Assembly: GCA_944350015.1 (NCBI GenBank)
Contig: CALVNW010000005.1
Span: 12,296 to 76,295 of the forward strand
DNA: 64,000 nucleotides
From: an uncultured Clostridia bacterium
Lineage (GTDB): Bacteria; Bacillota; Clostridia; Christensenellales; UBA1242
Direction: 5' to 3'
The first letter of the stretch is position 1; every line of letters begins with the position of its first letter. This document shows positions 1-62,641 of this stretch, piece after piece. The notes under the pieces were generated by a model. That model saw only the letters and a program-made list of their open reading frames with translations. It searched no databases and was not told where the DNA came from. The position numbers were made by a program, and so were the translations under genes.

Positions 1-1073
1 GAACGGCGTGGTAGAACTACGAAAATGGATAACCCAAATAAAGGTAAAAAGAAAAAGTTAGATAAGCAAGTTAAAGAGGATTAAATTGCAGAAAATCAAC
101 GACTGAAGGGAGAAAATCAATATTACAAAACTGAGATTGAATACTTAAAAAAATTAGATGCCTTAATTCGTGCGGAAGAGCAAAAGAAAAACAAAAAGCA
201 TTAGTTGTTTCTGAATTAAGGCAAAATTATCCGCTTAACACACTCTTAAAAATTTCTAAATTGCCAAGAAGTAACTTTTACTATCACAATAAAAAATTAA
301 AGATAGATAAATACAAGATTGAGAAACAAGAAATTAAAGAAATATTTGAAATAAATAAAGGTAGATATGGATATAGAAGAGTGCTAGAAGCTTTGAGACA
401 AAAGGGATACACAATAAATCACAAAACAGTATTAAAACTAATGAGAGAGTTAAAATTAAAAGGGAAACAAAGGAAGAATAAGTATAAATCATATAAAGGT
501 GAAGTTGGCAAGATTGTTTCTAATATACTTAATAGAGAATTTAAAGCAAAGGAACCATATGAGAAGTTGGCAACCGATGTAATAGAGTTTTCAGTGTGTG
601 ATGAAAAAGTTTATCTTTCTCCAGTTTTAGATATGTATAACAATGAGATAATTTCTTACTCAATTTCAACTAGTCCCAAATTTTACCAAACTAGAGAGAT
701 GCTAAATGGACTAATATCTCAATTACCAAACGATGTAAAGCCGATATTACATTCAGACCAAGGCTGGCAATACCAAATGAAAGAATATCAAAGTATATTA
801 AAAGAGAATAATATAACTCAAAGTATGTCAAGGAAAGGGAATTGTTTAGATAATAGTGTAATGGAGAATTTCTTTGGGAGACTAAAAACAGAGATGTTTT
901 ATGGAGAAAAATTTGAAAGTGTTAACACTTTCATTGACAAACTAAGAGAATATATATATTATTACAATAACGAACGAATAATACTTAAATTAAAAATGAG
1001 TCCGGTAAAATACCGAACTCAAAATATAGCAATATAATTATTAAATTTTGTCCAACTTTTTGGGTGCACCCCA
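1..1073 (+). mobile_element. IS3-family insertion sequence, right-hand ~1.07 kb (left end lies outside the window)
   Basis: OrfA C-terminal coiled-coil tail in frame 1 (ENQRLKGENQYYKTEIEYLKKLDALIRAEEQKK, stop 202-204). OrfB is in the -1 frame, open from 141. The A-rich overlap 181-197 is a candidate -1 slippery region. The element appears to end ...gggtgcacccCA at 1073. Confidence 0.8.
261..1037 (+). CDS. IS3-family transposase OrfB (rve/DDE integrase core)
   Basis: 258 aa from the first start codon; the frame is open from 141, consistent with an OrfAB frameshift fusion. DDE-type signatures HSDQGWQY and NCLDNSVMENFFGRLKTE. Confidence 0.9.
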   Translation: MPRSNFYYHNKKLKIDKYKIEKQEIKEIFEINKGRYGYRRVLEALRQKGYTINHKTVLKLMRELKLKGKQRKNKYKSYKGEVGKIVSNILNREFKAKEPYEKLATDVIEFSVCDEKVYLSPVLDMYNNEIISYSISTSPKFYQTREMLNGLISQLPNDVKPILHSDQGWQYQMKEYQSILKENNITQSMSRKGNCLDNSVMENFFGRLKTEMFYGEKFESVNTFIDKLREYIYYYNNERIILKLKMSPVKYRTQNIAI

Positions 1074-1076
1074 TTT

Positions 1077-1487
1077 CTATACATTTGTATTTATATTTAA
1101 TTCTAATTTGATATCAATATCATAAGGAATTTTACAATAATCTTCAAAGTCAGGAACAAAAACTAATTTGAATAATAAATTTGATTTTGTTATTGCTGTA
1201 TTAAAATCAATATCTTCGTATGTTCCACTTGCTTGATATTGTTGTAATTTCCAACTACCATACATATTGTTAACTGTTGACATATCAAATATATCACTAA
1301 ATTTGAAACTTTCTCCCTCGGATAAATCGTATGATAAGTTATAAACTCCTTCTTCACCATTATAAATGGTACCATCTATTCCTTTTATATAATCATTATC
1401 TGTTAAATTATATTTTGATATTGCAAATGAAATTTCAGCATCTATATCATTATAATCAAGATTATCACTACTTGCTTGTATGTGCAA
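1077..1487 (-). CDS. hypothetical protein (N/D/Y-rich, possibly a detached C-terminal piece of the upstream lipoprotein family)
   Basis: 136-aa ORF with a TTG start and no clear RBS. Composition resembles the 606-aa lipoprotein upstream. Stop codon lies 3 nt outside the IS end. Confidence 0.35.
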   Translation of the reverse strand: MHIQASSDNLDYNDIDAEISFAISKYNLTDNDYIKGIDGTIYNGEEGVYNLSYDLSEGESFKFSDIFDMSTVNNMYGSWKLQQYQASGTYEDIDFNTAITKSNLLFKLVFVPDFEDYCKIPYDIDIKLELNINTNV

Positions 1488-1517
1488 AACAGCTGTATAA
1501 TATGAATCAGAAACAGT

Positions 1518-3338
1518 TTATAAATTTGCGGTAATAATAATAGCTGTTTTCTGAATTTCATTATCTGATTTAATTTCATATGAAACGTTTATGTTATTCA
1601 ATTCAACGGTTGACATTTGACCACTTTCACTTGTCTTTAATAATTGAGCGGTTAAAGTATTATTATTTGATTCAAATACATTAGTTGGATAAGATGTGCC
1701 GCCCTTGGCATATAAATAGAACTGTGCAGTTATTGAGCCATCTGGCTGGATAACAACATTGTTAAGATAATCATTTTCTAACTCTAATGAAACTGCAGAT
1801 AATTCAAAAGACATATTCTGTTCAGTAATTATAGAAGAATTTGGATTAAGATTTTGAACAATAACTTTATATACTGCAGGCATTATAACATCTTCATTCA
1901 AATTAATATAATGATACAATTGAGATGAATTTACTAAATTGTAATCGGATGCCAATAAAACAGTGTCAGTAGTAGTATTTTTTATTGATATATTGAAAAG
2001 TTCTAATAAATCATTAGTATTTAAGTCTGTTAAATTTTCTTGAAAATTATCTGAAATAGATTTAACTTCAATATTTAAATACAAAGAATTTTTATTTAAT
2101 CTATATTCTGCAGCAGAAAGATTGAGCAATGTACCCGTATTCAAACTAATTGAAACATACCCTATATTTAATTTAACTTTTACAAATAACTCACTAAAAT
2201 CAAAACCTTCAGAATCATAATATACTTGATCGTCTGTAGGAATAGAGCCCGTAAAATTAATACCTATTTCATAAGATGAATTATCATCTGTAGTATAATT
2301 TACATATTTAGGGGTAGTTCCTTCTGTTTTCCATCTCCAATCAGTAAATTGGAAATCATCAGTATTATAAAAAGTATTATTATGTTCATCTGTAATAACA
2401 ATATTATTATTTGTATAACTAAATGAATTAAATTCGTCTAACAAAATACCATTTTTTATTTCATCTAAACTAGTGTACCTTAAATCAATTGTTGCATAAT
2501 CTAAATCTTTAGTATCATTACTTATAAACAACTTTGTTTTTTGAATGGTTATAGGTGCACCAACTGTAATGTATTGTGAAAAATAATTGTCAGATTCATT
2601 AATTTTAACAAAGAAAACATATTCACCAGGATTCATTGGATAATATCCTGAATAAGCATCCATATCCAAATTTGTTAAAGCTTGTTGAATTTCTTCTGTG
2701 TTAGGTAATTCAGTGTTTGTATCTTCAATTCCTAAATTTAATTTTAATTCATTAAATTCGTCTTTGGTAATATAATAAATATTGCTTATATCTGCATTGA
2801 CAATTTGATTGTTCTCTTTGATTTCAATGTAATCATACAATTCAACATAAGAAGGGAAATTTACATAATCCCAGCCTACAAAATTATCAGAAAAAGCAAA
2901 TGTATAGCTAAGTCCGCTTTCAGCCTTTTCAATATAGAAAGGAATTGATGTTTCTTGCTTTTCATATTTTACATATATATAATAATTTCCAACTTTATAT
3001 TCTGTAGGACTTGGTAAATTTGTCAAACTTTCTTCCATCGTTCCATATTTATCCGTATATTTAAACGATATTTTTAATCTATTATCTGAATATTTAATTT
3101 TTTCAGTTGAATCATCTGAATAAGATAATTTTACATATAAATTTTCAGTTGGATTTATATCTAAATATTCACTATATTCATAATATCCTAAATCATAAAT
3201 TACGCTTTCATTTTCATTAATGAATTCCATATATAAAAGTACTTTTTGCGGTGTTTTATCTCCACAAGCCGACAACAAAAATATTGCAGGAACAATAACG
3301 GCAAATGCCAGACAAAAACCTAAAATTTTCTTTTTCAT
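1518..3338 (-). CDS. large lipoprotein, function unknown
   Basis: 606 aa. N-terminal signal peptide with lipobox (MKKKILGFCLAFAVIVPAIFLLSAC). RBS aaaggagga upstream of the ATG. Confidence 0.8.
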   Translation of the reverse strand: MKKKILGFCLAFAVIVPAIFLLSACGDKTPQKVLLYMEFINENESVIYDLGYYEYSEYLDINPTENLYVKLSYSDDSTEKIKYSDNRLKISFKYTDKYGTMEESLTNLPSPTEYKVGNYYIYVKYEKQETSIPFYIEKAESGLSYTFAFSDNFVGWDYVNFPSYVELYDYIEIKENNQIVNADISNIYYITKDEFNELKLNLGIEDTNTELPNTEEIQQALTNLDMDAYSGYYPMNPGEYVFFVKINESDNYFSQYITVGAPITIQKTKLFISNDTKDLDYATIDLRYTSLDEIKNGILLDEFNSFSYTNNNIVITDEHNNTFYNTDDFQFTDWRWKTEGTTPKYVNYTTDDNSSYEIGINFTGSIPTDDQVYYDSEGFDFSELFVKVKLNIGYVSISLNTGTLLNLSAAEYRLNKNSLYLNIEVKSISDNFQENLTDLNTNDLLELFNISIKNTTTDTVLLASDYNLVNSSQLYHYINLNEDVIMPAVYKVIVQNLNPNSSIITEQNMSFELSAVSLELENDYLNNVVIQPDGSITAQFYLYAKGGTSYPTNVFESNNNTLTAQLLKTSESGQMSTVELNNINVSYEIKSDNEIQKTAIIITANL

Positions 3339-3460
3339 AAATCCTCCTTTTTGTTATACGCAGTAAAAGGGTAGTTTGTGAAAAATGTCAACATATAACT
3401 ATAGAATTATAATATCATAAAAATTATAAAATAACAAGCAATTTACTTATCTTTTCATTA

Positions 3461-3961
3461 TCAAACCGTTAAAACAGCAACTGCAATAGCACCAGCAAAA
3501 AGCCCGATTGCTAATAGTATTTGAAAAATTCCGACAAATATGTCAAGTTTTTTATATTTTAAACTTGGAGTTGTCTCAAGTTCTGCTTCCAAATTTTCAA
3601 TTTTCTTTTGATTTTTTTCAAGCAATGCTTTTCTTTTTTCTGCTTTATAAACAACACCCATAATCGCCATTGCAAAAGCAGTGAAGGCATAAACGCCACA
3701 ATATTCAAGTGCTGCAATAAAGGTTGCAACAAAGAAAATGCCAATAAAAATTAGCGCAACAACCTTTGCAATTCCACCGCCAAGCGAACCGCCTGTCATA
3801 AGTGACGACAAAAACCAATATTCAAGCCCGAGCGCAGCACCAATAAAAAGCATTGAAAGGATGATTGCAAAAATTCTTGCACCAACTCCACCTCTTTCAT
3901 ATCTTCGCATATCTCTATAATGCCGACTAGGAATACTAAATAACCAACCTAAAAATTTCAT
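3461..3961 (-). CDS. small integral membrane protein, function unknown
   Basis: Start moved to the internal ATG at 3961 (MKFLGWLF...), which is preceded by aaaggggg. Several hydrophobic segments and a C-terminal coiled-coil stretch. Confidence 0.65.
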   Translation of the reverse strand: MKFLGWLFSIPSRHYRDMRRYERGGVGARIFAIILSMLFIGAALGLEYWFLSSLMTGGSLGGGIAKVVALIFIGIFFVATFIAALEYCGVYAFTAFAMAIMGVVYKAEKRKALLEKNQKKIENLEAELETTPSLKYKKLDIFVGIFQILLAIGLFAGAIAVAVLTV

Positions 3962-4070
3962 AAATCCCCCTTTAACAATTATCCTTATTATCAGTATATA
4001 AAAATAAAAGTAAAAAGTCAAACAAAAATAGATATAATAAGTTTTATTTCTCTCGGATTTATAAATCATC

Positions 4071-4354
4071 TAATATAAACTATGTGATGTTAAAATTTTA
4101 TTATCATAAAATTTTATAAATTCTAACGAATTTGCGTGCTTTGCCCGCCCATCACATAGTGTGAAAAACCCTCAGCCTCACCCTTGCAAGCAAGTTCGGC
4201 TTCCGATAATATAAACTATGTGATGTTAAAATTTTATTATCATAAAATTTTATAAATTCTAACGAATTTGCGTGCTTTGCCCGCCCATCACATAGTATGT
4301 AAAACCATCAGCCTCACCCTTGCAAGCAAGTTCGGCTTCCGATAATATAAACTA
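4071..4354. repeat. 136-bp tandem repeat, 2.1 copies; each copy is a nested-palindrome (cloverleaf-like) unit
   Basis: taatataaactatgtgatg... begins at 4071, 4207 and (partial) 4343. An 11-bp closing stem actatgtgatg/catcacatagt (4079-4089/4150-4160) encloses an 11-bp hairpin, a 6-bp hairpin and a weak hairpin. Confidence 0.9.
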
Positions 4355-4446
4355 ATAAAAAAACCAAAAAAATTTTAGACAAATTCAAAAGTTATGAGAT
4401 AAACTTGAATAACACAATTTTGGTAGAGAATATAAGGAATTTAAGG

Positions 4447-4538
4447 GGATTTGATAGCACTAAAAAGCATAAGAAAAGAAGTGCAGGGTGCACTTCTTAA
4501 TCGAAGGGTCGGGGGTTCGAATCCCTGCAAGTCCACCA
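4447..4538 (+). ncRNA. tRNA-like RNA, non-canonical (acceptor stem, T-arm and encoded CCA, but no normal D or anticodon arm)
   Basis: GGATTTG (4447-4453) pairs with CAAGTCC (4528-4534), followed by A-CCA. T-loop GGTTCGAATCC. The interior holds a 10-bp hairpin aagaagtgca-ggg-tgcacttctt instead of an anticodon arm. An 18-bp hairpin follows immediately. Confidence 0.35.
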
Positions 4539-4539
4539 G

Positions 4540-4578
4540 AACAGAAATCACTTTGCAAAATGCAAAGTGATTTCTGTT
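4540..4578 (+). terminator. perfect 18-bp hairpin directly after the tRNA-like element
   Basis: aacagaaatcactttgca-aaa-tgcaaagtgatttctgtt. No T-run follows, so terminator function is not certain. Confidence 0.4.
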
Positions 4579-4629
4579 AGCACGTAAAAAAGAATCAAGC
4601 AAAAACTTACTTTTAAAAACAATAATTAT

Positions 4630-5855
4630 TTATTTTAATACGATCTTACCTTTATAGAAACTTTCCTCTTTCTCTTCAATTTTTTGTCTTTCAGCTTCAA
4701 GCATTTCATAATTTAGAGACAAGATATTTGTTAAATTTAAGGTGTTTTCATAAATTATAAGCAAACTATTTTTTGTGCTGGTTTTTAGATTAGAAATAGC
4801 ATTTTTCATAGACAAATAGATTTCTTCTTTATTTTTGTGACTTGCAAGGTTGGGGAAATCAATTTTGATGTTTTTTAATTTGCAAAGGTCTTTAACAAGT
4901 TGGAGAAAATCCACGATAACCCTCGAGCCTATTTTTTGTTGAATTACAAGTTCTGGCGTTCCTTTTGGAATGGTCTTATTTTTCTTAGACAAATATTCAT
5001 TTCTTTTAGCTTTGTCAAAAATAATTTCAATCATCTCCAATTTTTCTTCAAATTTTTTAATGATTTCTTCAAATAATTCATCGCTTGTGGGAGCAATGAT
5101 ATTGCATTTTTCAATAAAACTATTTGCATTTTTCTCACGCCAAAACTATTTTTTCAGTTGAGCTATGGTCATTTCTTCATATCTTTGTGTGAATTCCTGT
5201 TTGATTGTGGTTTTATTTTCTTGTATGTAATCATTTGCAAAAACAAATTCCTCACCAAAAGTTTGTAAATAAATTTCGTAAAGTTTATCATAGTCTTCAA
5301 TTATTTTGTTTACTGTATGATGAACGTTGAAAGTTTCTGGAATGATTATGCTTTTCTTTAAATATTTTTCAAATATTTCATCGTCTTGAAAATATAAAGC
5401 TTTAAGCTCAGAAAGCTGTTTAAAGCTTGTATATCTAGCATCAAATTCTATGGGAAATATGTAATTTCCTCTTGTGTAGTCAAATTCTATATTTGCTTTT
5501 CTTAATTTTTCATATATTGTGTTGAAAAGGGCGGTGAATATGAGTACTATACTTTGTGTATCGTTTGGGAATTCTTTTATGTCAAGAAATTTTTTGTAAT
5601 CATCTTGAATAATATGTTCGCATTCGTGATAAATTGTTTCAAGAATCTCGTATTTTTTGTTTTATAACTGCCAACAATGTTAAAATATCGCTGGGCGCCT
5701 ACTTCTTTGTATTTTTTGATAAAATCATATAATATATCTTCAAATTCAGTGTGAGTAGATTTGAAAGGGTAGTTTTTATAAAAAAGTTCTATTTTTACCA
5801 AATGATTTTTGTCTAAATCATCAATTTTTAAATTTGACAACTTTTTCGTTAGCAA
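4630..5855 (-). pseudogene. disrupted gene of unknown function (~408 codons; one frameshift plus one in-frame TAG)
   Basis: Three collinear reading-frame pieces. 5855-5577 shifts frame in the A-run near 5650-5662. The second piece (open from 5661) ends AQLKK-TAG at about 5147. The same frame then continues FWREKNANSF... into the 4630-5040 ORF. Confidence 0.7.
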
Positions 5856-5883
5856 TCATAGGCTCAATTATAAAAAGTGTTTG

Positions 5884-6516
5884 TCAAGCATTGTTTTTAA
5901 TTACTAACTTTTCTAATTTATCACAAAGACTTTTGATTTCACCTTTTGATTGGTAAATATTTTCTAATTCAACCTCATAATTTCTAAAGCTGTCAAGAAT
6001 TTCACGAGTAACATCATTAACTGTCCCTTCAATTTGCTTTTTTGTAACTTTTTTATTAATTCCTGCCTCATAATGTGCAACGAGTTTTTCATTTTCAATA
6101 GCAAACACCCAAGTACCTGCCTTATCGTCACTTATTGTAAGGGAAGAAGATTTGTCCCCGCTATAATAACCAATTAAACCATTTAAAATTAAAGATGGGG
6201 TAGGCTGGTCATCACAATCACAAATGTTAATTTCGCCACCATCGGTGCATTTAAATATATAATTACGTGACACACTGTAAGTTTTATTTTTTATATACAT
6301 TAAAAATATTTTTTTTGTAAGCAAATAATCTTTTATTTTATCCCAAAAAAAATTTAACAATGTCTCTTTGTTTTTAGGATAATCTTTACCAGTGTAAACA
6401 CGAGAAGATAAATAACCCGTCTCTAAATCATAAGATACATTAAGGGTTTGTCCCGTTTGTTTGTTAAAGAACCTTGCAAGTTCTTGCATTCTTTTTCCAA
6501 ATTCAATATTATTCAT
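5884..6516 (-). CDS. hypothetical protein
   Basis: 210-aa ORF with RBS aggagaaaaaat upstream of the ATG. No motif recognised. Confidence 0.65.
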   Translation of the reverse strand: MNNIEFGKRMQELARFFNKQTGQTLNVSYDLETGYLSSRVYTGKDYPKNKETLLNFFWDKIKDYLLTKKIFLMYIKNKTYSVSRNYIFKCTDGGEINICDCDDQPTPSLILNGLIGYYSGDKSSSLTISDDKAGTWVFAIENEKLVAHYEAGINKKVTKKQIEGTVNDVTREILDSFRNYEVELENIYQSKGEIKSLCDKLEKLVIKNNA

Positions 6517-6663
6517 ATTTTTTCTCCTATATTAAGTATTATTTTATATTTTAATCCTTCAAAATCCAAAAATAATCTTCAAGTCTCTACCAAATAAATT
6601 ATAGCAAAACCAAAATATTAAGTCAAAAATTTTTGTTAAGGTTTTTGATTAGTTTTGTTTTGC

Positions 6664-6692
6664 TTGATTTTTTGTTTTTATATGATTATAAT
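6664..6692 (+). promoter_or_regulatory. sigma-70-type promoter of valS
   Basis: TTGATT (6664-6669), 17-nt spacer, TATAAT (6687-6692). Confidence 0.5.
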
Positions 6693-6716
6693 TATCTTTA
6701 TTAGAAGGAGACTACA

Positions 6717-9314
6717 ATGGATAAAAACTACTGCCCAGAATTATTTGAAGGTGAGATTTATAAAAATTGGCTAGATAAAAATTATTTTGCCACTAACCCT
6801 GACTCAAGGGAGCATTATAGTATAGTTATGCCACCACTCAATGTTACAGGTAAGGCGCACATTGGTCACGCCCTTGACAACACTATGCAAGATATACTTA
6901 TAAGAACTAAGAGAATGCAGGGGTACAATACTCTTTGGGTGCCAGGCACTGACCACGCAGCTATTGCTACCGAGCAGGTTTTGGTTAAAGACCTAAAGCG
7001 CAATGGCGAGAGCAAGGAGAGTATTGGCCGTGAGGAGTTTTTAAAACGCGGTTGGCAATGGTATGGGAAATACACACACGTAATTTGCGACCAACTTAAA
7101 AAACTAGGTGTATCTTGCGACTGGAATAGACTTGCCTTTACTATGGATGAAAATTTGAATAGGGCGGTAAGGCAGGTGTTTTGCCAGTATTATAAGGAAG
7201 GGCTTATATATAAAGGGAAGAGGGTTGTAAACTACTGCCCAAGTTGTAAGACTACGATATCTGACAACGAGAATGTGCATATAGACCAAAACACATATCT
7301 TTGGTATATTCGCTATCCTTTTGCTGATGGCAGTGGTGAGGTTGTCGTTGCAACAACGCGTCCTGAGACATTGTTTGGTGATACTGCCGTTGCTGTCAAT
7401 CCAAATGACGCGCGTATTAAAGGTCAGGTCGGCAAGGACCTAATTTTGCCACTCGTCAATAAGAAAATCAAACTTATTGCAGATGACTACTGCGAAATCG
7501 GCTTTGGTACGGGCGCCGTTAAGATTACTCCAGCACACGACCCTAATGACTATGAGGTGGGCTTAAGACACAACCTTGAAGTTGTCAATTGCATTGATGA
7601 TGACGGAAAACTTACAGAATGTGCAGGGCAGTTTGCAGGACTTGATAGAATCGAGGCAAGACCGCTTATAGAAAAGGCTCTTATTGATGGCGGATATCTT
7701 GTAAAGAAAGAAAAGTACAAAAATCAGGTTGGCACTTGTGAGAGATGCGGGGCATTTACCGAGCCAAGAATATCAACACAGTGGTTTGTTAAAATGAAGG
7801 ATTTGGCTCGACCTGCAATAGAGGCTGTAAAGACTGGCAAGTTGACCTTCCATCCAAAACGCTATGAAAAGACATATTTAAATTGGCTTGAAAACATACA
7901 AGACTGGTGTATTTCACGTCAAATTTGGCTAGGGCATCGTATACCTGTGTTTACTTGCGCAAATGGACATACTTTTGCAAGTGAGGACTTCCCGACAGAG
8001 TGCCCGGTATGCAAGAGCACAAAACTTGAGCAAGATAATGACGTGCTTGACACCTGGTTCTCGTCAGCGCTTTGGCCGTTCTCTACACTTGGCTATCCTG
8101 AACAGACTGAGGACTTAAAATATTATTATCCAACATCAACTTTGGTTACCGGGTACGATATTATAACCTTCTGGGTGTCAAAAATGGTGTTTTCTGGCAT
8201 AAAATTTATGGGCGATGTGCCTTTTAAAGATGTTGTAATACACGGGCTTGTTAGGGATATTCACGGCGTCAAGATGTCTAAGCACCTTGGCAATGGTGTT
8301 GACCCAATTGATATGATTGATAAATATGGCGCTGACGCACTTAGACTCAGCCTCATAAATGGTATGAGCGCAGGCACTGACATAAAATATGGTGAAGAAA
8401 AGGCAAAAGAGGCAAAAATATTTATCAATAAACTCTATAATGCTAGCAAATTTGTTTTGCAAAATGTAAAAGATATTGAAATTAAGCCAATTAATAGGTT
8501 TAAATTACAAGAGAAAGATAAATGGATACTGTCCGAACTTGACAAATTAGTTAAGTCAGTCAATAAAAATATAGACAAGTACGCTCTTGGCGTTGCAACA
8601 AGTAACCTAATTGAGTTTACAGTTTCAAAATTCTGCGACTGGTATATTGAGCTTAGCAAGGTTGACCTTTACAGCGGAAACGCCGAAGACAAGCAAAGAA
8701 CGCAAAACATCTTGCTCTATACTTTATCGACGCTCCTTAAGGTGTTCCATCCTTTTATACCATTTGTTACAGAGTATATCTATAGAGAGCTCCCAGGCTC
8801 TGAAGAGACTATAATGTATTGTAGCTATCCTAAAAAGGTTGAATTTAAAGGGCTTAAAAATAATTTTGATAGGGTTATCAACATCATTCGTGCTATAAGA
8901 AACGCAAGAGCAGAGTTTAATGTGCCTGACAATAAAAAGACATCTATTTACATCTTGCCTGACGAGAAGGATGCTTTGATTGAAGAAAATCTTGAAGAGA
9001 TTGCAAAGTTGTCAAGTGGAAGTGACTGCAAGCTTATCGCCAGCGAGCCGGACGAAAAATGCACAAAGATAATCTGCGAAAATGTCAAAATTTATTTGCC
9101 AATGGGGCAACTTGTAGACCAAGAGAAAGAGAAAATGCGTCTTGAAAAAGAGATTGAAAAGTTAAAGTTTGAGGTAGCGCGCTCTGAAAAGATGCTATCA
9201 AACCAAGGCTTTGTATCTAAGGCTCCTGAAAATCTTATTACGCAGGAAAAAGAAAAACTTGAAAACAACCGTGCTTTGCTTGCAAAAGTACAACAAGAAT
9301 TTAATAGTCTATAG
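6717..9314 (+). CDS. valS: valine--tRNA ligase
   Basis: 865 aa. HIGH-type motif GKAHIGHAL, KMSKS motif VKMSKHLGN, and the C-terminal coiled coil typical of ValRS. Confidence 0.97.
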   Translation: MDKNYCPELFEGEIYKNWLDKNYFATNPDSREHYSIVMPPLNVTGKAHIGHALDNTMQDILIRTKRMQGYNTLWVPGTDHAAIATEQVLVKDLKRNGESKESIGREEFLKRGWQWYGKYTHVICDQLKKLGVSCDWNRLAFTMDENLNRAVRQVFCQYYKEGLIYKGKRVVNYCPSCKTTISDNENVHIDQNTYLWYIRYPFADGSGEVVVATTRPETLFGDTAVAVNPNDARIKGQVGKDLILPLVNKKIKLIADDYCEIGFGTGAVKITPAHDPNDYEVGLRHNLEVVNCIDDDGKLTECAGQFAGLDRIEARPLIEKALIDGGYLVKKEKYKNQVGTCERCGAFTEPRISTQWFVKMKDLARPAIEAVKTGKLTFHPKRYEKTYLNWLENIQDWCISRQIWLGHRIPVFTCANGHTFASEDFPTECPVCKSTKLEQDNDVLDTWFSSALWPFSTLGYPEQTEDLKYYYPTSTLVTGYDIITFWVSKMVFSGIKFMGDVPFKDVVIHGLVRDIHGVKMSKHLGNGVDPIDMIDKYGADALRLSLINGMSAGTDIKYGEEKAKEAKIFINKLYNASKFVLQNVKDIEIKPINRFKLQEKDKWILSELDKLVKSVNKNIDKYALGVATSNLIEFTVSKFCDWYIELSKVDLYSGNAEDKQRTQNILLYTLSTLLKVFHPFIPFVTEYIYRELPGSEETIMYCSYPKKVEFKGLKNNFDRVINIIRAIRNARAEFNVPDNKKTSIYILPDEKDALIEENLEEIAKLSSGSDCKLIASEPDEKCTKIICENVKIYLPMGQLVDQEKEKMRLEKEIEKLKFEVARSEKMLSNQGFVSKAPENLITQEKEKLENNRALLAKVQQEFNSL

Positions 9315-12431: not shown

Positions 12432-12776
12432 ATGGACATTCGTAGCTGTAGCATTACGGCTGATATTTTGAATGTTCTTACTGACGGCAAAAAGCATACA
12501 ATAGCTGAAATTGCTCAAATAGTCGAAGTCAGTGAAAAGACAGTAAGACGTCACATTCAGTCGCTTTCATATCGCTATCCAATAACCACTTTTAAGGGAG
12601 GCATTGAAAGAGGAGGTGTAATACTTGAAAAGCAATATATTTATCAAGGCAGGGTAAGGACAAAAGACGAAATAGATGTAATTGTCGAGGCATTAAAATG
12701 TTATCAAAAAGAATGCAGTGATGTCGGCAAACAAAACCTTATAAAATCATTGATTGAGGAGTACAGAATGGATTGA
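12432..12776 (+). CDS. HTH (HTH_11/DeoR-N-like) DNA-binding protein
   Basis: 114 aa. HTIAEIAQIVEVSEKTVRRHIQSL helix-turn-helix. RBS aaggaggtgg. Confidence 0.7.
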   Translation: MDIRSCSITADILNVLTDGKKHTIAEIAQIVEVSEKTVRRHIQSLSYRYPITTFKGGIERGGVILEKQYIYQGRVRTKDEIDVIVEALKCYQKECSDVGKQNLIKSLIEEYRMD

Positions 12777-12786
12777 ATACCAGTAT

Positions 12787-13587
12787 CCCCACAAATTTTG
12801 CAATTTGCGGGGGCCCCAAAAAATGCAACACGAAACTAGGCAGAAGCGCAGGGTGCGATGCTTAACAATTTAGTAGATTTTATTATGTAAAATTTGTATT
12901 TCCATCTCAAAGTCGCGCTGAATTCGCAGCTTGCGAGAATTCACGTTTGGTGCGGCTATCACCCCACAAGTTATGTAACTTGCGGGGAACCCCGACAGAG
13001 AAAGAGCGCCCCGCCACGTCACAAACTACACTCAAGTGTTCATCTTACGATGATTCACCATTTCGCTCGTTTGCTTATCACCCCACAGATTAAACAATCT
13101 GCGGGGAACCCCGACCTTTTCCCCACAAATTTCACAATTTGCGGGGACCCCAAAAAATGCAACACGAAACTAGGCAGAAGCGCAGGGTGCGATGCTTAAC
13201 AATTTAGTAGATTTTATTATGTAAAATTTGTATTTCCATCTCAAAGTCGCGCTGAATTCGCAGCTTGCGAGAATTCACGTTTGGTGCGGCTATCACCCCA
13301 CAAGTTATGTAACTTGCGGGGAACCCCGACAGAGAAAGAGCGCCCCGCCACGTCACAAACTACACTCAAGTGTTCATCTTACGATGATTCACCATTTCGC
13401 TCGTTTGCTTATCACCCCACAGATTAAACAATCTGCGGGGAACCCCGACCTTTTCCCCACAAATTTCACAATTTGCGGGGACCCCAAAAAATGCAACACG
13501 AAACTAGGCAGAAGCGCAGGGTGCGATGCTTAACAATTTAGTAGATTTTATTATGTAAAATTTGTATTTCCATCTCGAAGTCGCGCT
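12787..13587. repeat. 334-bp tandem repeat, ~2.4 copies (copies 2 and 3 look identical by eye)
   Basis: Identical landmarks at 12787/13121/13455, and two identical spurious ORFs offset by exactly 334 nt. Each unit carries three 26-nt CCCC...GGGG hairpins. Confidence 0.92.
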
Positions 13588-13815
13588 GGCGTCGCAAACT
13601 ACGCTCAGGCTAAGTTGCAGTAGCAACTCTAGCATTATCGCTCGTTTGCTCCTTTCCCCACAGATTAAACAATCTGCGGGGACCCCGAGAAACTTGCATT
13701 TTCGTTTGGCGCGAGAACACCCCTAAAAATCTAACGATTTTCAGGGAAACCCAAAAGAGGCGAAAACAAATGTTAGGACGTAGCTTTTCGCTTTAAAAAA
13801 GCGAAAACAAGCAAC

Positions 13816-13850
13816 AATGCAGTTTTCGCCTCTGGTGCCGAAGACGGGAG
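13816..13850 (-). repeat. 35-nt duplicate of the tRNA-Leu 3' end plus trailer
   Basis: aatgcagttttcgcctctggtgccgaagacgggag occurs at 13816-13850 and 13937-13971. The second copy overlaps the real tRNA. Confidence 0.85.
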
Positions 13851-13953
13851 CCTTCACCCTTAAAATTTGACAATTTTAAGGGAACCCGAACGAACCCTCG
13901 GGTTCGACTCCCAACAAGTATTTCAAAAAAACTGCTAATGCAGTTTTCGCCTC

Positions 13954-14039
13954 TGGTGCCGAAGACGGGAGTCGAACCCGTATGAAGTTGCCCTCGACAG
14001 ATTTTGAGTCTGTTGCGTCTGCCATTCCGCCACTTCGGC
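13954..14039 (-). tRNA. tRNA-Leu (anticodon CAA), type II with long variable arm, CCA encoded
   Basis: The reverse complement reads GCCGAAG-TG-GCGGAATGGCAGACGC-A-ACAGA-CTCAAAA-TCTGT-(variable arm)-ACGGGTTCGACTCCCGT-CTTCGGC-A-CCA. Confidence 0.9.
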
Positions 14040-14340
14040 TTAAATTAAGTTACTTTTTAATTCTATCATAACTTGAAAAAATTTACAACTACATTTATAA
14101 AATTTTTTATTTTTTATCTATTTTTGTGCGAAAAAGAGAAATTATTTTATCAAAAATAGGTAAAAACTACAACCCCATAATTCAAAAAACAAGAAAATTA
14201 CCAAACTTTTTCAATGTCGAAAAAGGTCGAAAAAGTTATAAATTTATCTAATTTTATCAAATTTTTGGTCATTTTAATCCAAAAAAGTTATAATTTTGTA
14301 AAATTTTTTACAAAAATATACAAAATGTTGGCACAAAGAA

Positions 14341-15786: not shown

Positions 15787-17214
15787 ATGAGTGATTTAAT
15801 GTATAAACTTAAACTTGTAAAAAATGAGCTTGAAAAAAGAAAAAAGGATGATTTTTTGTCCCGCTATAATACAGGTGAAAAAATACATAAAAAACAACTT
15901 GAATTTCACAAATGCAACAAGAAAAATAGATGGGTTTTTGGTGGCAATAGAAGTGGTAAAACCGAGTGTGGCGCCGTTGAGACAATCTATCTTGCTCGTG
16001 GCATACATCCATATAAAAAGAATAAGCCGATTTCTTGCTGGGTGGTGTCTTTATCTAAACAAGTGCAAAGAGATGTTGCGCAAGAAAAAATTTTGCACTA
16101 CCTGCGAAAAGATTGGATAGAAAAAGTTGTTATGGCAAGCGGTAGGTCAGACAGCGCCGAGAGTGGTATCATTGATTTTATCTTGGTTAGAAATGTGTTT
16201 GGGTCGCTAAGTAAGATTGGCTTTAAAAGTTGCGACCAAGGCAGAGAGAAGTTTCAAGGCTCATCTCTCGATTTTGTTTGGTTTGATGAAGAACCGCCAT
16301 ATGATATTTATCAAGAGTGCCGTATGCGTGTGCTTGACAAAAAAGGTATGATTTTTGGCACAATGACACCGCTTAAAGGACTTACCTGGGTTTACAATGA
16401 AATTTATTTGAACGAGAATAATGATAGCGAGGTGTGGCATATCGAAATGGAGTGGGCGGATAACCCATACCTTGATAAAGATGAGATTGAAGCAATGACT
16501 AAATCACTCTCACAAGATGAACTTGAAAGCAGAAGGTATGGCAAGTTTATGCAGTGTGGCGGGCTTGTCTATAGCGAATTTGATGAAAACGTAAATGTAA
16601 TTGACCCTTTTGACGTTCCGAAAGAGTGGCAAGACAATATCTCTATAGACCCAGGACTCAATAACCCGCTCTCTGCGCATTGGTATTGCGAGGATTATGA
16701 TGGCAATGTCTATGTGGTTGCCGAACACTATGCGCAAGGCAAAGATGTCTACTATCACGCAAATAAAATTAAAGAGATTTGTCAAAAATTAGATTGGCAT
16801 TATACAAATGGCAAGATTTCGGCACTGATTGATAGCGCCGCTATGCAAAGGACCCTTGCAAGCTCAAAAAGCGTGGTAGATTTGTTCTATGAAAATGATA
16901 TTTTGGTCAATCCTAGGGTAAATAAAGATATGTTCAGCGGGATAAACACTGTTAAGAGATACTTAAAAGACGGCGAAGGTAAACCGCATCTATTTATTTT
17001 TAGAAACTGTACAAACCTTATCAGAGAGATAAAATCTTATTGGTGGGGTGATAATGACCTTCCTATTAAAAGAGATGACCACTGCCTAGACGAAATGAGG
17101 TATTACCTTATGGATAAACAGCTTACGCTTAGAATAAAGGACAAAAAGAACGAGATACAAAAGGATAAACAGCGCCTTATCAAACAACTTAAAACAAGTA
17201 AGTATCATTTATAG
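15787..17214 (+). CDS. phage terminase large subunit (orphan)
   Basis: 475 aa. Walker A GGNRSGKTECG, Walker B-like VWFDEEP, and a C-terminal nuclease-type region (ISIDPG ... DDHCLDEMRY). Confidence 0.88.
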   Translation: MSDLMYKLKLVKNELEKRKKDDFLSRYNTGEKIHKKQLEFHKCNKKNRWVFGGNRSGKTECGAVETIYLARGIHPYKKNKPISCWVVSLSKQVQRDVAQEKILHYLRKDWIEKVVMASGRSDSAESGIIDFILVRNVFGSLSKIGFKSCDQGREKFQGSSLDFVWFDEEPPYDIYQECRMRVLDKKGMIFGTMTPLKGLTWVYNEIYLNENNDSEVWHIEMEWADNPYLDKDEIEAMTKSLSQDELESRRYGKFMQCGGLVYSEFDENVNVIDPFDVPKEWQDNISIDPGLNNPLSAHWYCEDYDGNVYVVAEHYAQGKDVYYHANKIKEICQKLDWHYTNGKISALIDSAAMQRTLASSKSVVDLFYENDILVNPRVNKDMFSGINTVKRYLKDGEGKPHLFIFRNCTNLIREIKSYWWGDNDLPIKRDDHCLDEMRYYLMDKQLTLRIKDKKNEIQKDKQRLIKQLKTSKYHL

Positions 17215-17922: not shown

Positions 17923-19929
17923 ATGAGTCTAAAGATGAAATTAGTATCAATGATATCTGCGTTTGTACTTGTAATAGGAATGCTATTAATAGGAGTATTT
18001 GCAGTAAACCAAGCTCAAGTGGATATGGGTGGAAGCATTACCTTTAACGCAGATGATGTCTACGCTCGTGTTACAGGAAATGTAACAAAGGCGCAGGTTG
18101 CACCAGAGGATTTGGATGTAACCTATTCTGCCACTGGAACAACAGGCAACCCTACAGCGTGGGAAAACCTTAACCTTGAGTTTGATAGTTATGCCACACC
18201 AATAGTGATATCAATCACAGTAGAGAACCTAAGTACAGAGAGGAGCTTAACAGTAAACTTAACAGACGCTCTTACCTCTAGTGTGCCAAACTTAGGTAAA
18301 GCACTACAAAGAGATAATGGCGCGTATACAAGTGGAACAAATATAACCTTAGACCCTAAGGATAATGGCACAAGCACCACAACCTTTACCATAACCTTGT
18401 CAGTTACCGACAAAAACCAATCTCTCACCAACGCTCAGTTTGACTATGACCTTAATCTCTATGACGAGAGCGTAGCGCCAAAAGAAATTTTAGAAGGTTT
18501 TATATTTGACGATAGTGGCAATTTAACCTCATATACAGGTACAGATAGTGAAGTTACAGTCCCATCCTCATATTCTATGATAGGAGAGCCTACAACAAAA
18601 TCTCTATATTTTGAAACGGTTGATAGCACAGAAGAATATATGATGACATTAGTAGGCATAACTAATTTTAAGTTAACAACAGACGATGGCGAAGAATATA
18701 TATTAGATGACTTCGGAGATATGGTTTTTTCTCCAGATTTTGAAAGCAAGTTCCCTTGCACGCTAGAGTATAAAGATTATTCTAATGTTACTTTCACAAC
18801 AGGCAGTGACTATCAAGTAGAAGGGGTGGTAGGTGCATTTATAATGAATCAGACTATTCAAACAGTTAATCTTCCTGATACTATTAAAAATATAGGGATT
18901 TATTCGTTTACTACATCTACTTTGAATAATATAACCTTGCCAGAAGGTTTAATAAGTATAGGGGGTAGTGCATTCTATGGTTGCAGTAGCCTTACAAGTA
19001 TAACCTTGCCATCAAGTTTAACAAGTATATATTATGGTGCATTTTGGGATTGTGAAGGACTTACAAGTATAACCTTGCCATCAAGCTTAATAAGTATAGG
19101 TAAGGGTGCATTTAAGGATTGCAGTGGACTTACAGGGAAGTTGGATTTTAGCAATTGTACAAGTTTAACAAGTATAGGGGAATGGGCATTCTATGGTTGC
19201 AATGACCTTACAAGTATAACCTTGCCAGACAGTTTAATGAGCATAGGGGAGCGGGCATTCTATCAATGCAGTGGACTTACAAGTATAACCTTGCCAGACA
19301 GTTTAATGAGCATAGGGGAATATGCATTCTATGGTTGCAGTAATTTACAGCCATCAACAACTGATGATAACGGAGTAAAATATTTAGGCAGTGAACAAAA
19401 CCCATATTTAGTATTATGGGATGGAACAGGTATAACAAACTCGTCTTATACAGTCAATCCAGATTGTAAAATTATTTGCCCTAGCGCATTCTCTGGCTGC
19501 GATGTACTTACAAGCATAACCTTGCCAGAAGGTTTAAAAAGTATAGGAGATTATGCATTCCAAGATTGCAGTGGACTTACAACTGTAGATTTAAGTAATT
19601 GCACAAGTTTAACAAGTATAGGGATGCATGCATTCAGATATTGCAGTGGACTTACAAGTATAACCTTGCCAGAAAGGTTAACAAGTATAGGGGAGTATGC
19701 ATTCTCTAGTTGCAGTAAATTAACAGAAGTCATTATAGATAGCGAGTATGTATATACCAATGCAACATCGAGATCGGCGTGTGGTTATTTGTTTGGTAAC
19801 TCATCTACCACCACTGTTAAGGTTTTGACCAGTTTGGATGATGGAACTAATAGTTATATCACCACAAACTTCACGAAGGGTCCAACCGAGGTAATTAACG
19901 GAAAGAATTATACTGTTTACTCTAAATAA
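17923..19929 (+). CDS. BspA-type leucine-rich-repeat surface protein (paralog 1)
   Basis: 668 aa. N-terminal signal/anchor MSLKMKLVSMISAFVLVIGMLLIGVFAV. More than 8 repeats of LTSITLPxxLxSIGxxAFxxCxxL. Confidence 0.9.
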   Translation: MSLKMKLVSMISAFVLVIGMLLIGVFAVNQAQVDMGGSITFNADDVYARVTGNVTKAQVAPEDLDVTYSATGTTGNPTAWENLNLEFDSYATPIVISITVENLSTERSLTVNLTDALTSSVPNLGKALQRDNGAYTSGTNITLDPKDNGTSTTTFTITLSVTDKNQSLTNAQFDYDLNLYDESVAPKEILEGFIFDDSGNLTSYTGTDSEVTVPSSYSMIGEPTTKSLYFETVDSTEEYMMTLVGITNFKLTTDDGEEYILDDFGDMVFSPDFESKFPCTLEYKDYSNVTFTTGSDYQVEGVVGAFIMNQTIQTVNLPDTIKNIGIYSFTTSTLNNITLPEGLISIGGSAFYGCSSLTSITLPSSLTSIYYGAFWDCEGLTSITLPSSLISIGKGAFKDCSGLTGKLDFSNCTSLTSIGEWAFYGCNDLTSITLPDSLMSIGERAFYQCSGLTSITLPDSLMSIGEYAFYGCSNLQPSTTDDNGVKYLGSEQNPYLVLWDGTGITNSSYTVNPDCKIICPSAFSGCDVLTSITLPEGLKSIGDYAFQDCSGLTTVDLSNCTSLTSIGMHAFRYCSGLTSITLPERLTSIGEYAFSSCSKLTEVIIDSEYVYTNATSRSACGYLFGNSSTTTVKVLTSLDDGTNSYITTNFTKGPTEVINGKNYTVYSK

Positions 19930-54251: not shown

Positions 54252-55016
54252 ATGCCGTTCTGTGTTATCAAATCAAGGACTATAAAAATCTTCTTAGCTA
54301 TGCTTGCGGTGGTAATACTGCTTTGCATCTCTTTTGAGGGAGGCGCGTGCGCTCAAGTTTGGTTTGGCTCGTCATCAAGGCTTGTACCAATTTACCGAGT
54401 TGACACCGAGGAGAAGCAAGTTGCGATATCTTTTGACGCTGCGTGGGGCGCGGATAAAACGCAAGAGATAATTGATATACTTGCCGAGTACAATGCCAGT
54501 GCAACCTTCTTTTTGGTGGGCTTTTGGGTGGATAAATATCCTGAAATGGTCAAGGCAATAGATGATGCCGGACTTGAGATAGGCACTCACTCAAACACTC
54601 ATCCTGATATGGCGAAACTCGACAAAGCCACCATACGAAGCGAGCTTGAAACATCAATGTCGAAGATAAAGGACATCACCGGCAAGGATATAACTGTTTT
54701 TCGCCCGCCTTATGGCTCATATAACAATACGCTACTCAATGTTTGCTCTGATTTGGGCTTAAAGGCAATTCAATGGGATGTTGACTCGCTCGACTGGAAG
54801 GGCTTGTCTGCGGGAGAGGTTACCGACAGAGTTATGCAAAAAACTCAAAATGGTTCAATAATATTGATGCACAACAATGCCGACAATGTTTGCGACTCAT
54901 TAAGGTTGACGCTTGACTGGCTGACGAAAAAAGGATACAAAGTTACAAGCGTGGGGGAGCTTATTTATAGTGACAATTACACGATAGACGCAAATGGTGA
55001 ACAACACCAAAATTAG
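54252..55016 (+). CDS. polysaccharide deacetylase (NodB homology domain, PdaB-like)
   Basis: 254 aa with an N-terminal TM/signal. ISFDAAWG, THSNTHP and RPPYG motifs. Confidence 0.82.
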   Translation: MPFCVIKSRTIKIFLAMLAVVILLCISFEGGACAQVWFGSSSRLVPIYRVDTEEKQVAISFDAAWGADKTQEIIDILAEYNASATFFLVGFWVDKYPEMVKAIDDAGLEIGTHSNTHPDMAKLDKATIRSELETSMSKIKDITGKDITVFRPPYGSYNNTLLNVCSDLGLKAIQWDVDSLDWKGLSAGEVTDRVMQKTQNGSIILMHNNADNVCDSLRLTLDWLTKKGYKVTSVGELIYSDNYTIDANGEQHQN

Positions 55017-55029
55017 AGGAGGAAGAAAA

Positions 55030-60926: not shown

Positions 60927-61003
<77 letters not shown>

Positions 61004-62639: not shown

Positions 62640-62641
62640 AT

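Follow-up and report, generated by a model that had tools for sequence, protein, structure and literature searches.

The hairpin array beside a tRNA-Leu gene in a 64,000-nucleotide stretch of an uncultured Clostridia bacterium (contig CALVNW010000005.1 of assembly GCA_944350015.1; the whole stretch is called the window here) belongs to a genuine, statistically solid family of structured repeats that lies outside the curated RNA families. Covariation shows that the fold of the hairpin, H1, is conserved in phages and in over 100 genomes drawn from several phyla. The unit that it forms with a second hairpin, M2, is multicopy, modular, non-coding and independent of particular genes in its distribution, and is present on phages and beside mobility genes; H1-M2 joins the CCA ends of tRNA genes precisely and repeatedly, and its arrays turn over rapidly between strains. 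Structured extragenic repeats, of the kind represented by repetitive extragenic palindromic (REP) sequences and their bacterial interspersed mosaic elements (BIMEs) or by BOX elements, are the best-fitting class, and we give an even chance to the fuller statement that H1 is the core module of a widespread modular non-coding structured repeat family, REP/BIME- or BOX-like and yet outside those families. A preliminary description of the window had reported the hairpin alone; the hairpin is real, but it is only one module of a unit, H1-M2, tied to tRNA 3' ends.

The window contains eight exact matches to the pattern CCCCNC-N14-GNGGGG (at 12787, 12962, 13081, 13121, 13296, 13415, 13455 and 13656), and 100 dinucleotide-shuffled windows contain none. 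These are the eight strict hairpins of the preliminary description, and all are present; three of them, however, lie at +334 within a 334-bp tandem repeat (12786-13588; 2.4 copies and 99% identity by Tandem Repeats Finder) and are therefore duplicates, which leaves five independent strict hairpins (A, B, C, A' and C') with three distinct stems. Start-to-start spacings of the strict hairpins are 175, 119, 40, 175, 119, 40 and 201 nt, and the array as a whole (12787-13882, cluster 1) is bounded by a gene for a small helix-turn-helix (HTH) protein (12432-12776, plus strand) and by tRNA-Leu(CAA) on the minus strand. Four looser relatives had also been proposed, D and E in cluster 1 and F and G in a second cluster near 55.8 kb. 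A covariance model, R1, recovered E and F, detected D only in part and missed G, which is homologous by unit alignment; run over the 64 kb, the model gave no matches beyond the two clusters.

In every strict copy an A faces a C at positions 5/22, as had been noted, and this mismatch becomes a G·U wobble when the hairpin is read on the minus strand. The minus strand is also the stabler one: the gain is 3.5-6 kcal/mol in D and the five strict copies but 1.4 kcal/mol in E, the hairpins of cluster 1 folding at -15 to -17 kcal/mol on that strand versus -9 to -14 kcal/mol on the plus strand; together these observations identify the minus strand as the folded strand of cluster 1. Loops of the form GNNA then appear in A (GCAA), A' (GUGA), D (GUUA), E (GUCA) and, on the plus strand, F (GUAA), whereas those of B and C (ACAU and GUUU) are not GNNA. 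The (A)ACCCC reported to follow the hairpins is present, and on the folded strand it is a conserved GGGG-N(1-2) immediately 5' of the hairpin. The preliminary description had further suggested that this segment competes for the GGGG arm in an alternative GGGG-AA-CCCC fold; the resulting mini-hairpin, CGGGGAACCCCG, reaches only -4.9 kcal/mol versus -15 to -18 kcal/mol for the long hairpin, and the spacer is 1 nt in most relatives, so a two-state switch is unlikely. It is plausible that the hairpin acts as a single strand, either RNA or single-stranded DNA (ssDNA), with the G·U strand as the folded direction.

The decisive evidence for the fold comes from other genomes. On the folded strand the consensus of H1 is GGGG-N-CCCC-G-CA-NNNN-loop-NNNN-UG-U-GGGG. 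Its stem of 11-12 bp stands on invariant CCCC/GGGG feet and has a G·U(T) wobble at position 5, above which the pairs covary freely. Our external scans used a pattern in which the feet were fixed (18 bases) and four stem pairs and the loop were left free; it returned 11 loci from IMG/VR, all 11 of which fold, and at least 117 loci from the GTDB genome collection, so that H1 is now seen in more than 120 loci of Clostridia, Bacteroidales, Saccharibacteria and phages (numbers with the prefix L designate individual loci below). A few high-GC matches to the pattern do not fold and are due to chance. The viral and genome scans together gave 137 instances; 110 are Watson-Crick at all four free stem positions, and another 10 combine three such pairs with one G·U. 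Among 87 distinct sequences from other genomes, 99% of cells are paired and 126 double-sided changes are counted, versus 28.8 ± 5.8 in shuffles (none of 500 shuffles is as high); sliding the partner columns lowers pairing to 41-59%. The paired substitutions at 8/19 and 9/18 that had first suggested a conserved structure are confirmed in the window, where they are too few alone, and become overwhelming with these relatives: what is conserved is structure rather than sequence.

The GGGG foot followed by 1-2 nt is found in the window copies and in 87 of the 87 aligned relatives, and by-catch copies have GGGG or GGG. Applied to the same loci, model R1 yields about 35 further variants in which the G·T at position 5 stays when adjacent pairs change and is sometimes swapped for A-T or G-C; in an unbiased by-catch of 20 hairpins, the G·T is kept in 8, the stem is perfect in 9, and 3 are irregular in some other way. 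Oscillospiraceae and other Clostridia of gut, rumen and termite origin make up most of the hosts, joined by Bacteroidales, a closed Saccharibacteria chromosome, Patescibacteria, Eremiobacterota and Dehalococcoidales. In one termite-gut metagenome-assembled genome (MAG), H1 sits inside a lineage-specific repeat of about 170 nt at at least 12 loci, partly in tandem; elsewhere H1 alone forms tandem arrays with 8-nt spacers (L091, L109) and occasional inverted pairs (L019, L033).

A trivial origin, as chance palindromes, terminators, a degenerate CRISPR (clustered regularly interspaced short palindromic repeats) array, attC sites or an assembly artefact, is scarcely credible, even with three of the eight copies being tandem duplicates and GC-rich hairpins being common after genes. 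The number of strict copies expected by chance is zero. Intrinsic terminators were rejected: among 124 copies, just 5 have a T-rich tail (at least 6 of 9 nt) when read in the G·U orientation and 12 when read in the A·C orientation, and a terminator scan found none at the hairpins. A CRISPR array is contradicted by irregular spacing and variable stems, in agreement with the preliminary description; we also dismissed a resemblance to the type I-E CRISPR repeat (GTTCCCCGC...GCGGGGATAAAC), the stems here being longer and variable, with no array or cas context. A regular-expression search of both strands over 12700-14000 revealed no RYYYAAC or GTTRRRY boxes, and hence no integron attC site. Finally, the same hairpins occur in eight independent metagenome assemblies of the locus, and the array is not an assembly artefact. 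Comparison with Rfam 15 at the gathering score gave only tRNA matches, and at E <= 10 nothing relevant fell on the hairpins of 12700-14100, where the best overlap was a plant-virus pseudoknot at 17 bits; neither H1 nor M2 has a matching Rfam family.

H1 is often followed on its 3' side by M2, a second long imperfect hairpin whose base consists of a G-C pair and tandem G·A pairs. Read along the folded strand, the unit of about 115 nt runs GGGG-N, H1, a short purine linker (often AGA), G-GA, P2, an internal loop, an apical hairpin, P2' and GA-C-G, and this two-hairpin architecture is consistent across 25 folds. P2 shows 42 double-sided changes versus 13.1 in shuffles (none of 500 as high), a comparison somewhat biased by hand-chosen alignment anchors; examples are GCAAAC/GUUUGC, GGCGCAA/UUGCGCC, GCAGUCC/GGACUGC and GUGACAU/AUGUCAC. 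A metagenome scan for H1 followed by AGAGGAG found 58 loci with 29 distinct downstream sequences, dominated by one common human-gut variant that keeps purine-rich internal loops, CGGAAUGA and GAUAUGAAG, together with a second tandem-GA motif. Mosaic arrays occur in L091, L078 and L042, and mosaics bring in other modules as well: one is a 'K' hairpin set between CAAACG and GCGCGAC, another a 'T' hairpin (GGAGGCGAAAAC...GUUUUCGCCUCC), and a third is AT-rich and promoter-like and carries a conserved leader.

These features raise the question of whether H1-M2 is a functional structured RNA, that is, a small RNA (sRNA) of about 115 nt or a module of untranslated regions (UTRs), made in the G·U orientation (in the window from the promoter-like sites of the 334-bp repeat), with a role at the RNA level that might, for instance, be to bind a protein, to block nucleases or to pair as an antisense with tRNA 3' ends, and with its many copies due to carriage on mobile elements. 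We think this rather unlikely, although it is the foremost rival explanation. It would suit the conserved G·U, the two tandem G·A motifs, the purine-rich loops and the GNRA-like loops of the window copies, but G·T and tandem G·A are stable in ssDNA too, and many H1 loops are C-NN-G palindromes, typical of DNA palindromes. A promoter-like site and a conserved leader, CTGCGCTTCTGCCTAGTTTCGTG..GCATTTTTT, lie upstream of H1 in the window and again in L078 and L088, the promoter match being one to the consensus only. Sense-strand copies of H1-M2 upstream of rpsH and downstream of rplE in a ribosomal-protein operon, and another 3' of tuf, have no U-tract and would be transcribed and tolerated; H1 is in the sense orientation in four of five phage families; and the bases that come after M2 are the complement of tRNA 3' ends. 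Over all copies, however, orientation relative to the flanking genes is near random (33 sense, 25 antisense, 21 between convergent and 16 between divergent genes), there is no gene association, and the tandem H1-only arrays of L091 and L109 look like repeat DNA, not like genes.

H1-M2 is tied to tRNA 3' ends. A tRNA gene lies within 1.5 kb of 18 of the 128 listed copies, and in all 18 cases the copy is on the 3' side of the tRNA. On the G·U strand the unit ends ...GACG(N0-4)|TGG, in which TGG is the antisense of the CCA of a genuine tRNA gene; such junctions are found at seven tRNA genes, namely Met (L014), Pro (L039), Lys (L044), Ser (L098 and L126), Thr (L061) and an unassigned tRNA on a Patescibacteria contig (L128), with H1-M2 antisense to the tRNA and 0-4 nt away at all seven. 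Because L039, L044 and L098 belong to one MAG, near-identical units stand at the CCA ends of three tRNAs in a single genome. CCA is encoded by 26 of the 31 tRNA genes in the loci, too many for this trait to tell element-bearing tRNAs apart. Dispersed units carry tags similar to tRNA 3' ends after GACG, such as TGGCGGGGCGC in the window and TGGCGGTGGCGC in L078 and L091, and TGG falls within 9 nt of GACG in 11 of 26 M2 units, where a rough estimate for chance is about 12%.

Direct repeats of tRNA 3' ends (14-35 nt) are found in the window and in L014, L060, L093, L088 and L042, and bracket small inserts; the repeat is 35 nt long in the window and 31, 25 and 21 nt in L014, L060 and L093. The 86-bp insert of the window carries no gene. 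L042 has three tandem units of about 146 nt; in each, 18 nt from a tRNA 3' end are combined with a small terminator and with two hairpins, one an inverted T-arm and the other H1-like, and 13851-13971 of the window is one unit of this type. The T-arm of tRNA-Leu (CGGGTTCGACTCCC) has a 14-nt perfect inverted copy in the window (13899-13912 versus 13967-13980, 54 nt from the gene), as also in L088 and L042. In a separate case, a different module (CCTGCGG..GCTCC.TCGC) abuts the CCA of tRNA-Val, tRNA-Leu and tRNA-Arg in the termite-gut Oscillospiraceae MAG WQWM01 (L023, L055), and repeat modules that butt against tRNA CCA ends may be a general habit in such genomes.

Repeats at tRNA 3' ends are also what would be left by prophages, integrative and conjugative elements (ICEs) or integrative and mobilisable elements (IMEs) that enter tRNA genes with tyrosine integrases. 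H1-M2 would then be the att-proximal arm or decayed scar of such elements, with arrays built by successive integrations and deletions and the copies away from tRNAs secondary. The placement of all tRNA-linked copies on the tRNA 3' side, the bracketing repeats, the 121-bp unit with 35-nt repeats that is precisely present or absent between strains, and the occurrence of H1-M2 in phage contigs and beside relaxase genes are all consistent with this, as is L126, where the order is tRNA-attL-int with H1-M2 in between and a tyrosine-integrase gene converges on H1-M2-tRNA-Ser; among the tRNA-linked copies, L126 alone has an integrase. Yet the units at the Pro, Lys and Ser tRNAs of one MAG share only CCA or 5-6 nt with the next 'core', so one sequence-specific integrase is insufficient; the inserts, at 120-350 bp, are far too small for an autonomous element; in 86% of copies the nearest 1.5 kb is free of tRNA genes, and these copies lie among housekeeping genes; and att arms are not known to require covarying hairpins. 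On balance we judge such an origin unlikely.

The CCA junction admits another interpretation, in which H1-M2 is the conserved core of an undescribed class of non-autonomous mobile element, or of a structured RNA, joined precisely to the CCA of whichever tRNA gene, and the junction records tRNA-primed copying or structure-guided insertion of ssDNA. Reverse transcription of an H1-M2 RNA primed by a tRNA would give the tRNA CCA followed by the reverse complement from the ...GACG 3' end, which is the observed junction, and the UGGCGG... tags on dispersed copies would be remnants of primer-binding sites. We consider this distinctly unlikely.

Comparison of strains reveals how the array changes. The exact HTH protein occurs on 23 contigs of other metagenome assemblies, eight of which were retrieved; among these the HTH gene is separated from the next gene by 871-1578 nt, a spacer in which between 2 and 10 hairpins are found. 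One strain is without one 334-bp repeat (L130), and three have the A' and B units in a different order (L131, L133, L134). L134 is also precisely without the 121-bp unit, a single copy of the 35-nt repeat remaining, while in L132 the 121-bp unit is absent and about 700 bp have been lost between homologous K-type segments. Since the strains differ at the repeated modules, the array is real and is remodelled at repeated sequences; tandem copy numbers may be understated in short-read assemblies.

Taken together, these results favour a reading to which we assign roughly equal chances of being right or wrong: the modules are non-autonomous, fold as single strands, and have been inserted or recombined in trans at tRNA 3' ends and on integrative elements, the arrays then being recombined locally. 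The modules would be passengers that fold as ssDNA during replication or transfer, or as RNA, and would be moved for the most part to the 3' flanks of tRNA genes and to phages and integrative elements, a mode of spread that we infer. The mobilising enzyme would not be encoded beside them; a tyrosine integrase such as that of L126, or another structure-recognising recombinase, is a candidate. Homologous or unequal recombination would then reshape the local arrays, and any possible benefit to the host, for instance stabilisation of RNA 3' ends or insulation of transcription, would be secondary.

Several observations weigh against this reading. No mobilising enzyme has been identified, and a single integrase beside a single copy is anecdotal. 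We found no clean target-site duplication and no filled/empty pair for the H1-M2 unit itself; the sole such pair is the 121-bp E unit with its 35-nt repeats, for which homologous recombination is equally possible. About 86% of copies are without a nearby tRNA gene. The conserved G·U, the tandem G·A and the purine-rich internal loops resemble functional RNA more than selfish DNA, and the sense-strand insertions upstream of rpsH and 3' of tuf also look RNA-like. Conservation at the 18 bases fixed in the scan pattern is partly by construction, and only the by-catch hairpins are an unbiased sample for those positions. Lastly, cluster 2 has an identical length in the five strains examined, with no polymorphism, so not every copy is dynamic.

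The surroundings of H1 offer no recurrent gene partner. H1 copies are mostly intergenic, and no Pfam family recurs among 193 neighbouring open reading frames (ORFs), which have housekeeping functions of all kinds; Baseplate_J and HNH, considered as recurrent neighbours, each trace to a single phage lineage. Genes beside the paired hairpins encode a DUF4364 protein, an ABC-F protein, EF-Tu, ribosomal protein L5 and a relaxase, but no transposase. Nor is there a transposase among the 25 top families of the 193 neighbours, or a Y1_Tnp or OrfB domain in 30 flanking proteins scanned individually, and a regular-expression scan for the Y1 HUH motif over the window and 128 loci (about 1 Mb) returned a single match, in L086, unrelated to the H1 hairpins. 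The preliminary description had proposed looking for a REP-associated tyrosine transposase (RAYT) or an IS200/IS605 tnpA; none lies beside any copy.

These negatives bear directly on the idea that H1 is a true REP, or an IS200/IS605 derivative of the palindrome-associated transposable element (PATE) type, moved as ssDNA by the product of a single Y1 HUH transposase gene in each genome, to which the GGGG foot would act as guide. The architecture does parallel that of REPs, with a 5' tetranucleotide, an imperfect hairpin, a non-Watson-Crick pair, clusters and inverted pairs (L019, L033), and H1 shares with them its form as a 26-nt imperfect palindrome, its mostly extragenic location and its presence at at least 12 loci in one MAG; IS200/IS605 transposases, moreover, are common in Clostridia (PMC6006769). 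REPs, however, are defined by a 5' GT[AG]G at the foot of the hairpin (PMC6006769), or in the REP literature by a GT[AG]G or CGTC tag, and the foot of H1 is GGGG. None of the REP literature examined describes the H1 hairpin, and Bacillota are absent or barely represented there. With a foot other than GT[AG]G, and no flanking RAYT gene in the window or the 128 loci, membership of the REP family was rejected. We likewise rejected a PATE with paired ends: the left and right ends of IS200/IS605 elements are alike, whereas H1 and M2 differ in length and sequence, and neither tnpA nor tnpB is nearby. No Y1 gene adjoins any copy, and the lone match in L086 is 3.5 kb from an H1 and not flanked by one. 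Y1 insertion is strand-biased and gene direction in Firmicutes tracks replication, but the copies have no orientation bias relative to gene direction, which serves here as a proxy; the core also spans phyla, while REP families are normally lineage-specific. We therefore hold a REP or PATE identity to be highly doubtful. The L086 gene itself (3619-4116, Flavonifractor porci) encodes a 165-aa Y1 HUH transposase-like protein (NHVH...YIDQNP) between mutS and a miaB-like gene; a hairpin with a 9-bp stem (GGGCCGATG-4-CATCGGCCC) stands just upstream of it and again inside, and the related GGGGCGATG/CATCGCCCC is inside as well.

The mobile-element context is more varied. H1-M2 lies 3' of relaxase genes (L041, L043), between HNH and the gene for the small terminase subunit (TerS) near a ParB-methylase gene in phage L007, and in other phages after the major capsid gene or duplicated around a tail-region ORF. 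Two adjacent strand-specific hairpins of about 115 nt in such places could be an ssDNA signal of mobile elements, either a promoter similar to Frpo or a single-strand origin (sso), with the chromosomal copies as relics. A polymerase-like ORF judged by eye (L174, L199) also stands near the unit, and cluster 2 follows a gene with a single-stranded DNA-binding (SSB) domain; Frpo elements accompany ssb, umuDC and methylase genes (PMC11541004). By inspection, no correctly spaced -35/-10 pair is present on the M2 arms, where the best hexamers are about 12 nt apart or misordered. Most copies are in ordinary chromosomal spacers, including the ribosomal operon, and neither tandem arrays nor tRNA junctions are expected of single-strand origins. 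This explanation is very improbable. In L174 and L199, M2 ends at the GTG start of the ORF, VERVILHCDLNSFYASVE, which by eye is similar to a Y-family (UmuC/DinB) polymerase.

Coordinates of the two clusters and associated features are collected in Table 1.

Table 1. Hairpins, repeats and associated features of the window (kcal/mol values are RNA folds for the strand in brackets; R1, score in the covariance model).
Feature	Coordinates	Strand	Description and evidence
H1 copy A	12787-12812	-	minus-strand CCCCGCAAATTGCAAAATTTGTGGGG, loop GCAA; pattern match; R1 46.9 bits; -15.6 (-) vs -10.7 (+) kcal/mol
H1 copy B	12962-12987	-	tandem duplicate 13296-13321; pattern match; R1 42.4 bits
H1 copy C	13081-13106	-	tandem duplicate 13415-13440; pattern match; R1 37.1 bits
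H1 copy A'	13121-13146	-	loop GTGA; tandem duplicate 13455-13480; pattern match; R1 51.7 bits
H1 copy C'	13656-13681	-	stem as in C, flanks differ; pattern match; R1 51.4 bits
Looser H1 relative D	13720-13746	-	CCCTGAAAATCGTTAGATTTTTAGGGG, G·U kept; -15.2 (-) vs -9.1 (+) kcal/mol; same hairpin in L042, L088
Looser H1 relative E	13857-13882	-	perfect 11-bp stem, within the 121-bp presence/absence unit; R1 14.7 bits (13849-13893)
M2 of unit C	13017-13074 (duplicate 13351-13408)	-	GCAAAC-GAGCG-hairpin-UUGAGUGUA-GUUUGU-GACG; then tag like a tRNA 3' end at 13004-13016, minus-strand UGGCGGGGCGCUC; alignment, fold, junction analysis
M2 of unit C'	13590-13652	-	G-GA-GCAAAC...GUUUGC-GA-C; alignment, fold, P2 covariation
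334-bp tandem repeat	12786-13588	.	2.4 copies, 99% identical; carries units A'/B/C; copy number varies between strains
Promoter-like site TTGAGA-17-CATAAT	13216-13244 (also 12882-12910, 13550-13578)	-	in each 334-bp repeat, upstream of the conserved leader and H1; consensus match only
35-nt direct repeat	13816-13850 (copy 1), 13937-13971 (copy 2)	.	tRNA-Leu 3' end (18 nt) and 17 nt downstream; 100% identical
121-bp presence/absence unit	13851-13971	.	one 35-nt repeat and 86 bp with hairpin E, an inverted piece of the T-arm (13899-13912) and a small hairpin resembling a terminator
tRNA-Leu(CAA) gene	13954-14039	-	ARAGORN; Rfam tRNA 59.7 bits; hairpin array on its 3' side, same strand
H1 relative F	55832-55858	+	U·U at stem position 5; R1 19.4 bits (55821-55865); unit alignment
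M2 of unit F	55861-55926	+	unit alignment, fold, P2 covariation
H1 relative G	55979-56007	+	CCC...GGG, 6-nt loop; homologous in unit alignment; fold; undetected by model
M2 of unit G	56007-56075	+	unit alignment, fold, P2 covariation

The units of cluster 2 are oriented opposite to those of cluster 1, the plus strand being the favourable fold for copy F, so that the window's two clusters lie on opposite strands although its GC skew is uniform. Directly upstream of cluster 2, at 54994-55710, is the gene for the SSB-domain protein, which has an N-terminal extension of about 115 aa.

The genes of the window are those of an ordinary chromosome (valyl-tRNA synthetase, DegV, a LexA-like protein, BspA-type leucine-rich repeat (LRR) proteins and ABC transporters), and no recognisable prophage surrounds the array, where there is only a lone terminase gene. 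This large-subunit gene (Terminase_6N/6C, phrog_2; 15787-17214) stands alone 1.7 kb from tRNA-Leu, an arrangement kept in L129-L134; the two ORFs just upstream of it have no phage structural match (one is like a transcriptional regulator, the other matchless), and the nearest downstream ORFs tested have no annotated phage function. BspA-type LRR proteins are encoded at 17923-19929, 26830-28650 and 52757-53920, and their 69-75-nt periodic repeats dominate the tandem-repeat list. A further tandem repeat at 4071-4354 (136 bp, 2.1 copies, 97% identity), in a low-GC intergenic region, is unrelated to the hairpin family. GC content is 25-31% at 1-7000 and 61000-63000 versus about 36% elsewhere; the second of these stretches adjoins tRNA-Arg(CCT) (60927-61003) and may be an island.

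Two observations from other contigs concern ORFs next to H1. In the high-GC phage L001 (7365-7988), as also in L008 and L011, an ORF of 191 aa just upstream of the Baseplate_J gene has on either side an H1-containing repeat of about 60 nt, and the arrangement looks like a cassette bounded by the hairpin. In the unrelated contigs L020, L105 and L009, a conserved short ORF of about 25 aa (MRSLGTVQ.PTEAFMAVLK...) lies just 3' of H1.

If our interpretation is correct, gut Clostridia and their mobile elements carry an abundant class of structured repeats that is absent from Rfam and from the literature searched, and the covariance model is ready for use in annotating hundreds of intergenic regions that now appear 'empty'. 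The family marks strain-variable recombination hot spots at tRNA genes, which could aid strain typing and calls for caution in assembly. It also raises the question of what recognises the G·U hairpin and sets a two-hairpin unit at the CCA of unrelated tRNAs; the answer could reveal a new mobilisation route, or an RNA-protein system, common to bacteria, organisms of the candidate phyla radiation (CPR) and phages. On present evidence this is not a categorically new kind of element, but it is made worth following up by its junction with CCA, by the wobble that it conserves, by its G·A motifs and by its occurrence across phyla.

Among known systems, the REP/BIME sequences of Enterobacteria and Pseudomonas are, like H1, imperfect palindromes of small size in which the 5' foot and a single irregularity of the stem are conserved, and are extragenic, multicopy and non-coding, forming mosaic arrays with other motifs. 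H1 differs from them in its GGGG-N foot, in that no RAYT or REPtron was found, and in that its copies are mostly direct rather than alternating; its core is, moreover, common to several phyla and phages, and it is coupled to M2 and to tRNA 3' ends. The BOX elements of Streptococcus pneumoniae (boxA-boxB(n)-boxC), together with RUP and SPRITE, are modular and intergenic, form stable single-strand folds and vary between strains in the number of internal modules, as H1-M2 does. BOX and H1 are not known to be related in sequence, and neither a tRNA-CCA junction nor a wide taxonomic range is a known feature of BOX; H1 also has deep covariation rather than sequence identity.

The subterminal hairpins of IS200/IS605 elements and PATEs resemble H1 as imperfect hairpins with GC feet that act as ssDNA and have a conserved short sequence 5' of the foot, and that of IS608 also has CCCC/GGGG feet; if such an element were inserted beside a specific short sequence, the result would be similar to the ...CCA| junction of H1-M2. 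Unlike the ends of these elements, H1 and M2 are dissimilar, H1 occurs in tandem arrays by itself, and there is no strand bias relative to gene direction. Integrative elements that target tRNA genes share with H1-M2 the location at tRNA 3' ends, direct repeats of 14-35 nt and, in one case, an adjacent tyrosine integrase, whereas the units described here measure 120-350 bp, occupy several tRNAs per genome and are in most copies away from tRNAs; no att site is known to have an arm that is structured and covaries. Integron attC sites, including those of clusters of attC sites lacking integron-integrases (CALINs), are similar to H1 in being recognised by structure, in their single-strand fold with a variable centre and in their arrays, but H1 has no R''/R' boxes, cassettes or integron integrase and measures 26 nt as opposed to 57-141 nt. 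Frpo and sso elements, finally, are like H1-M2 in being strand-specific multi-hairpin ssDNA on mobile DNA near ssb, umuC, methylase and relaxase genes; H1-M2 differs in that inspection of its stems revealed no -35/-10 geometry, and most of its copies are chromosomal and repeated.

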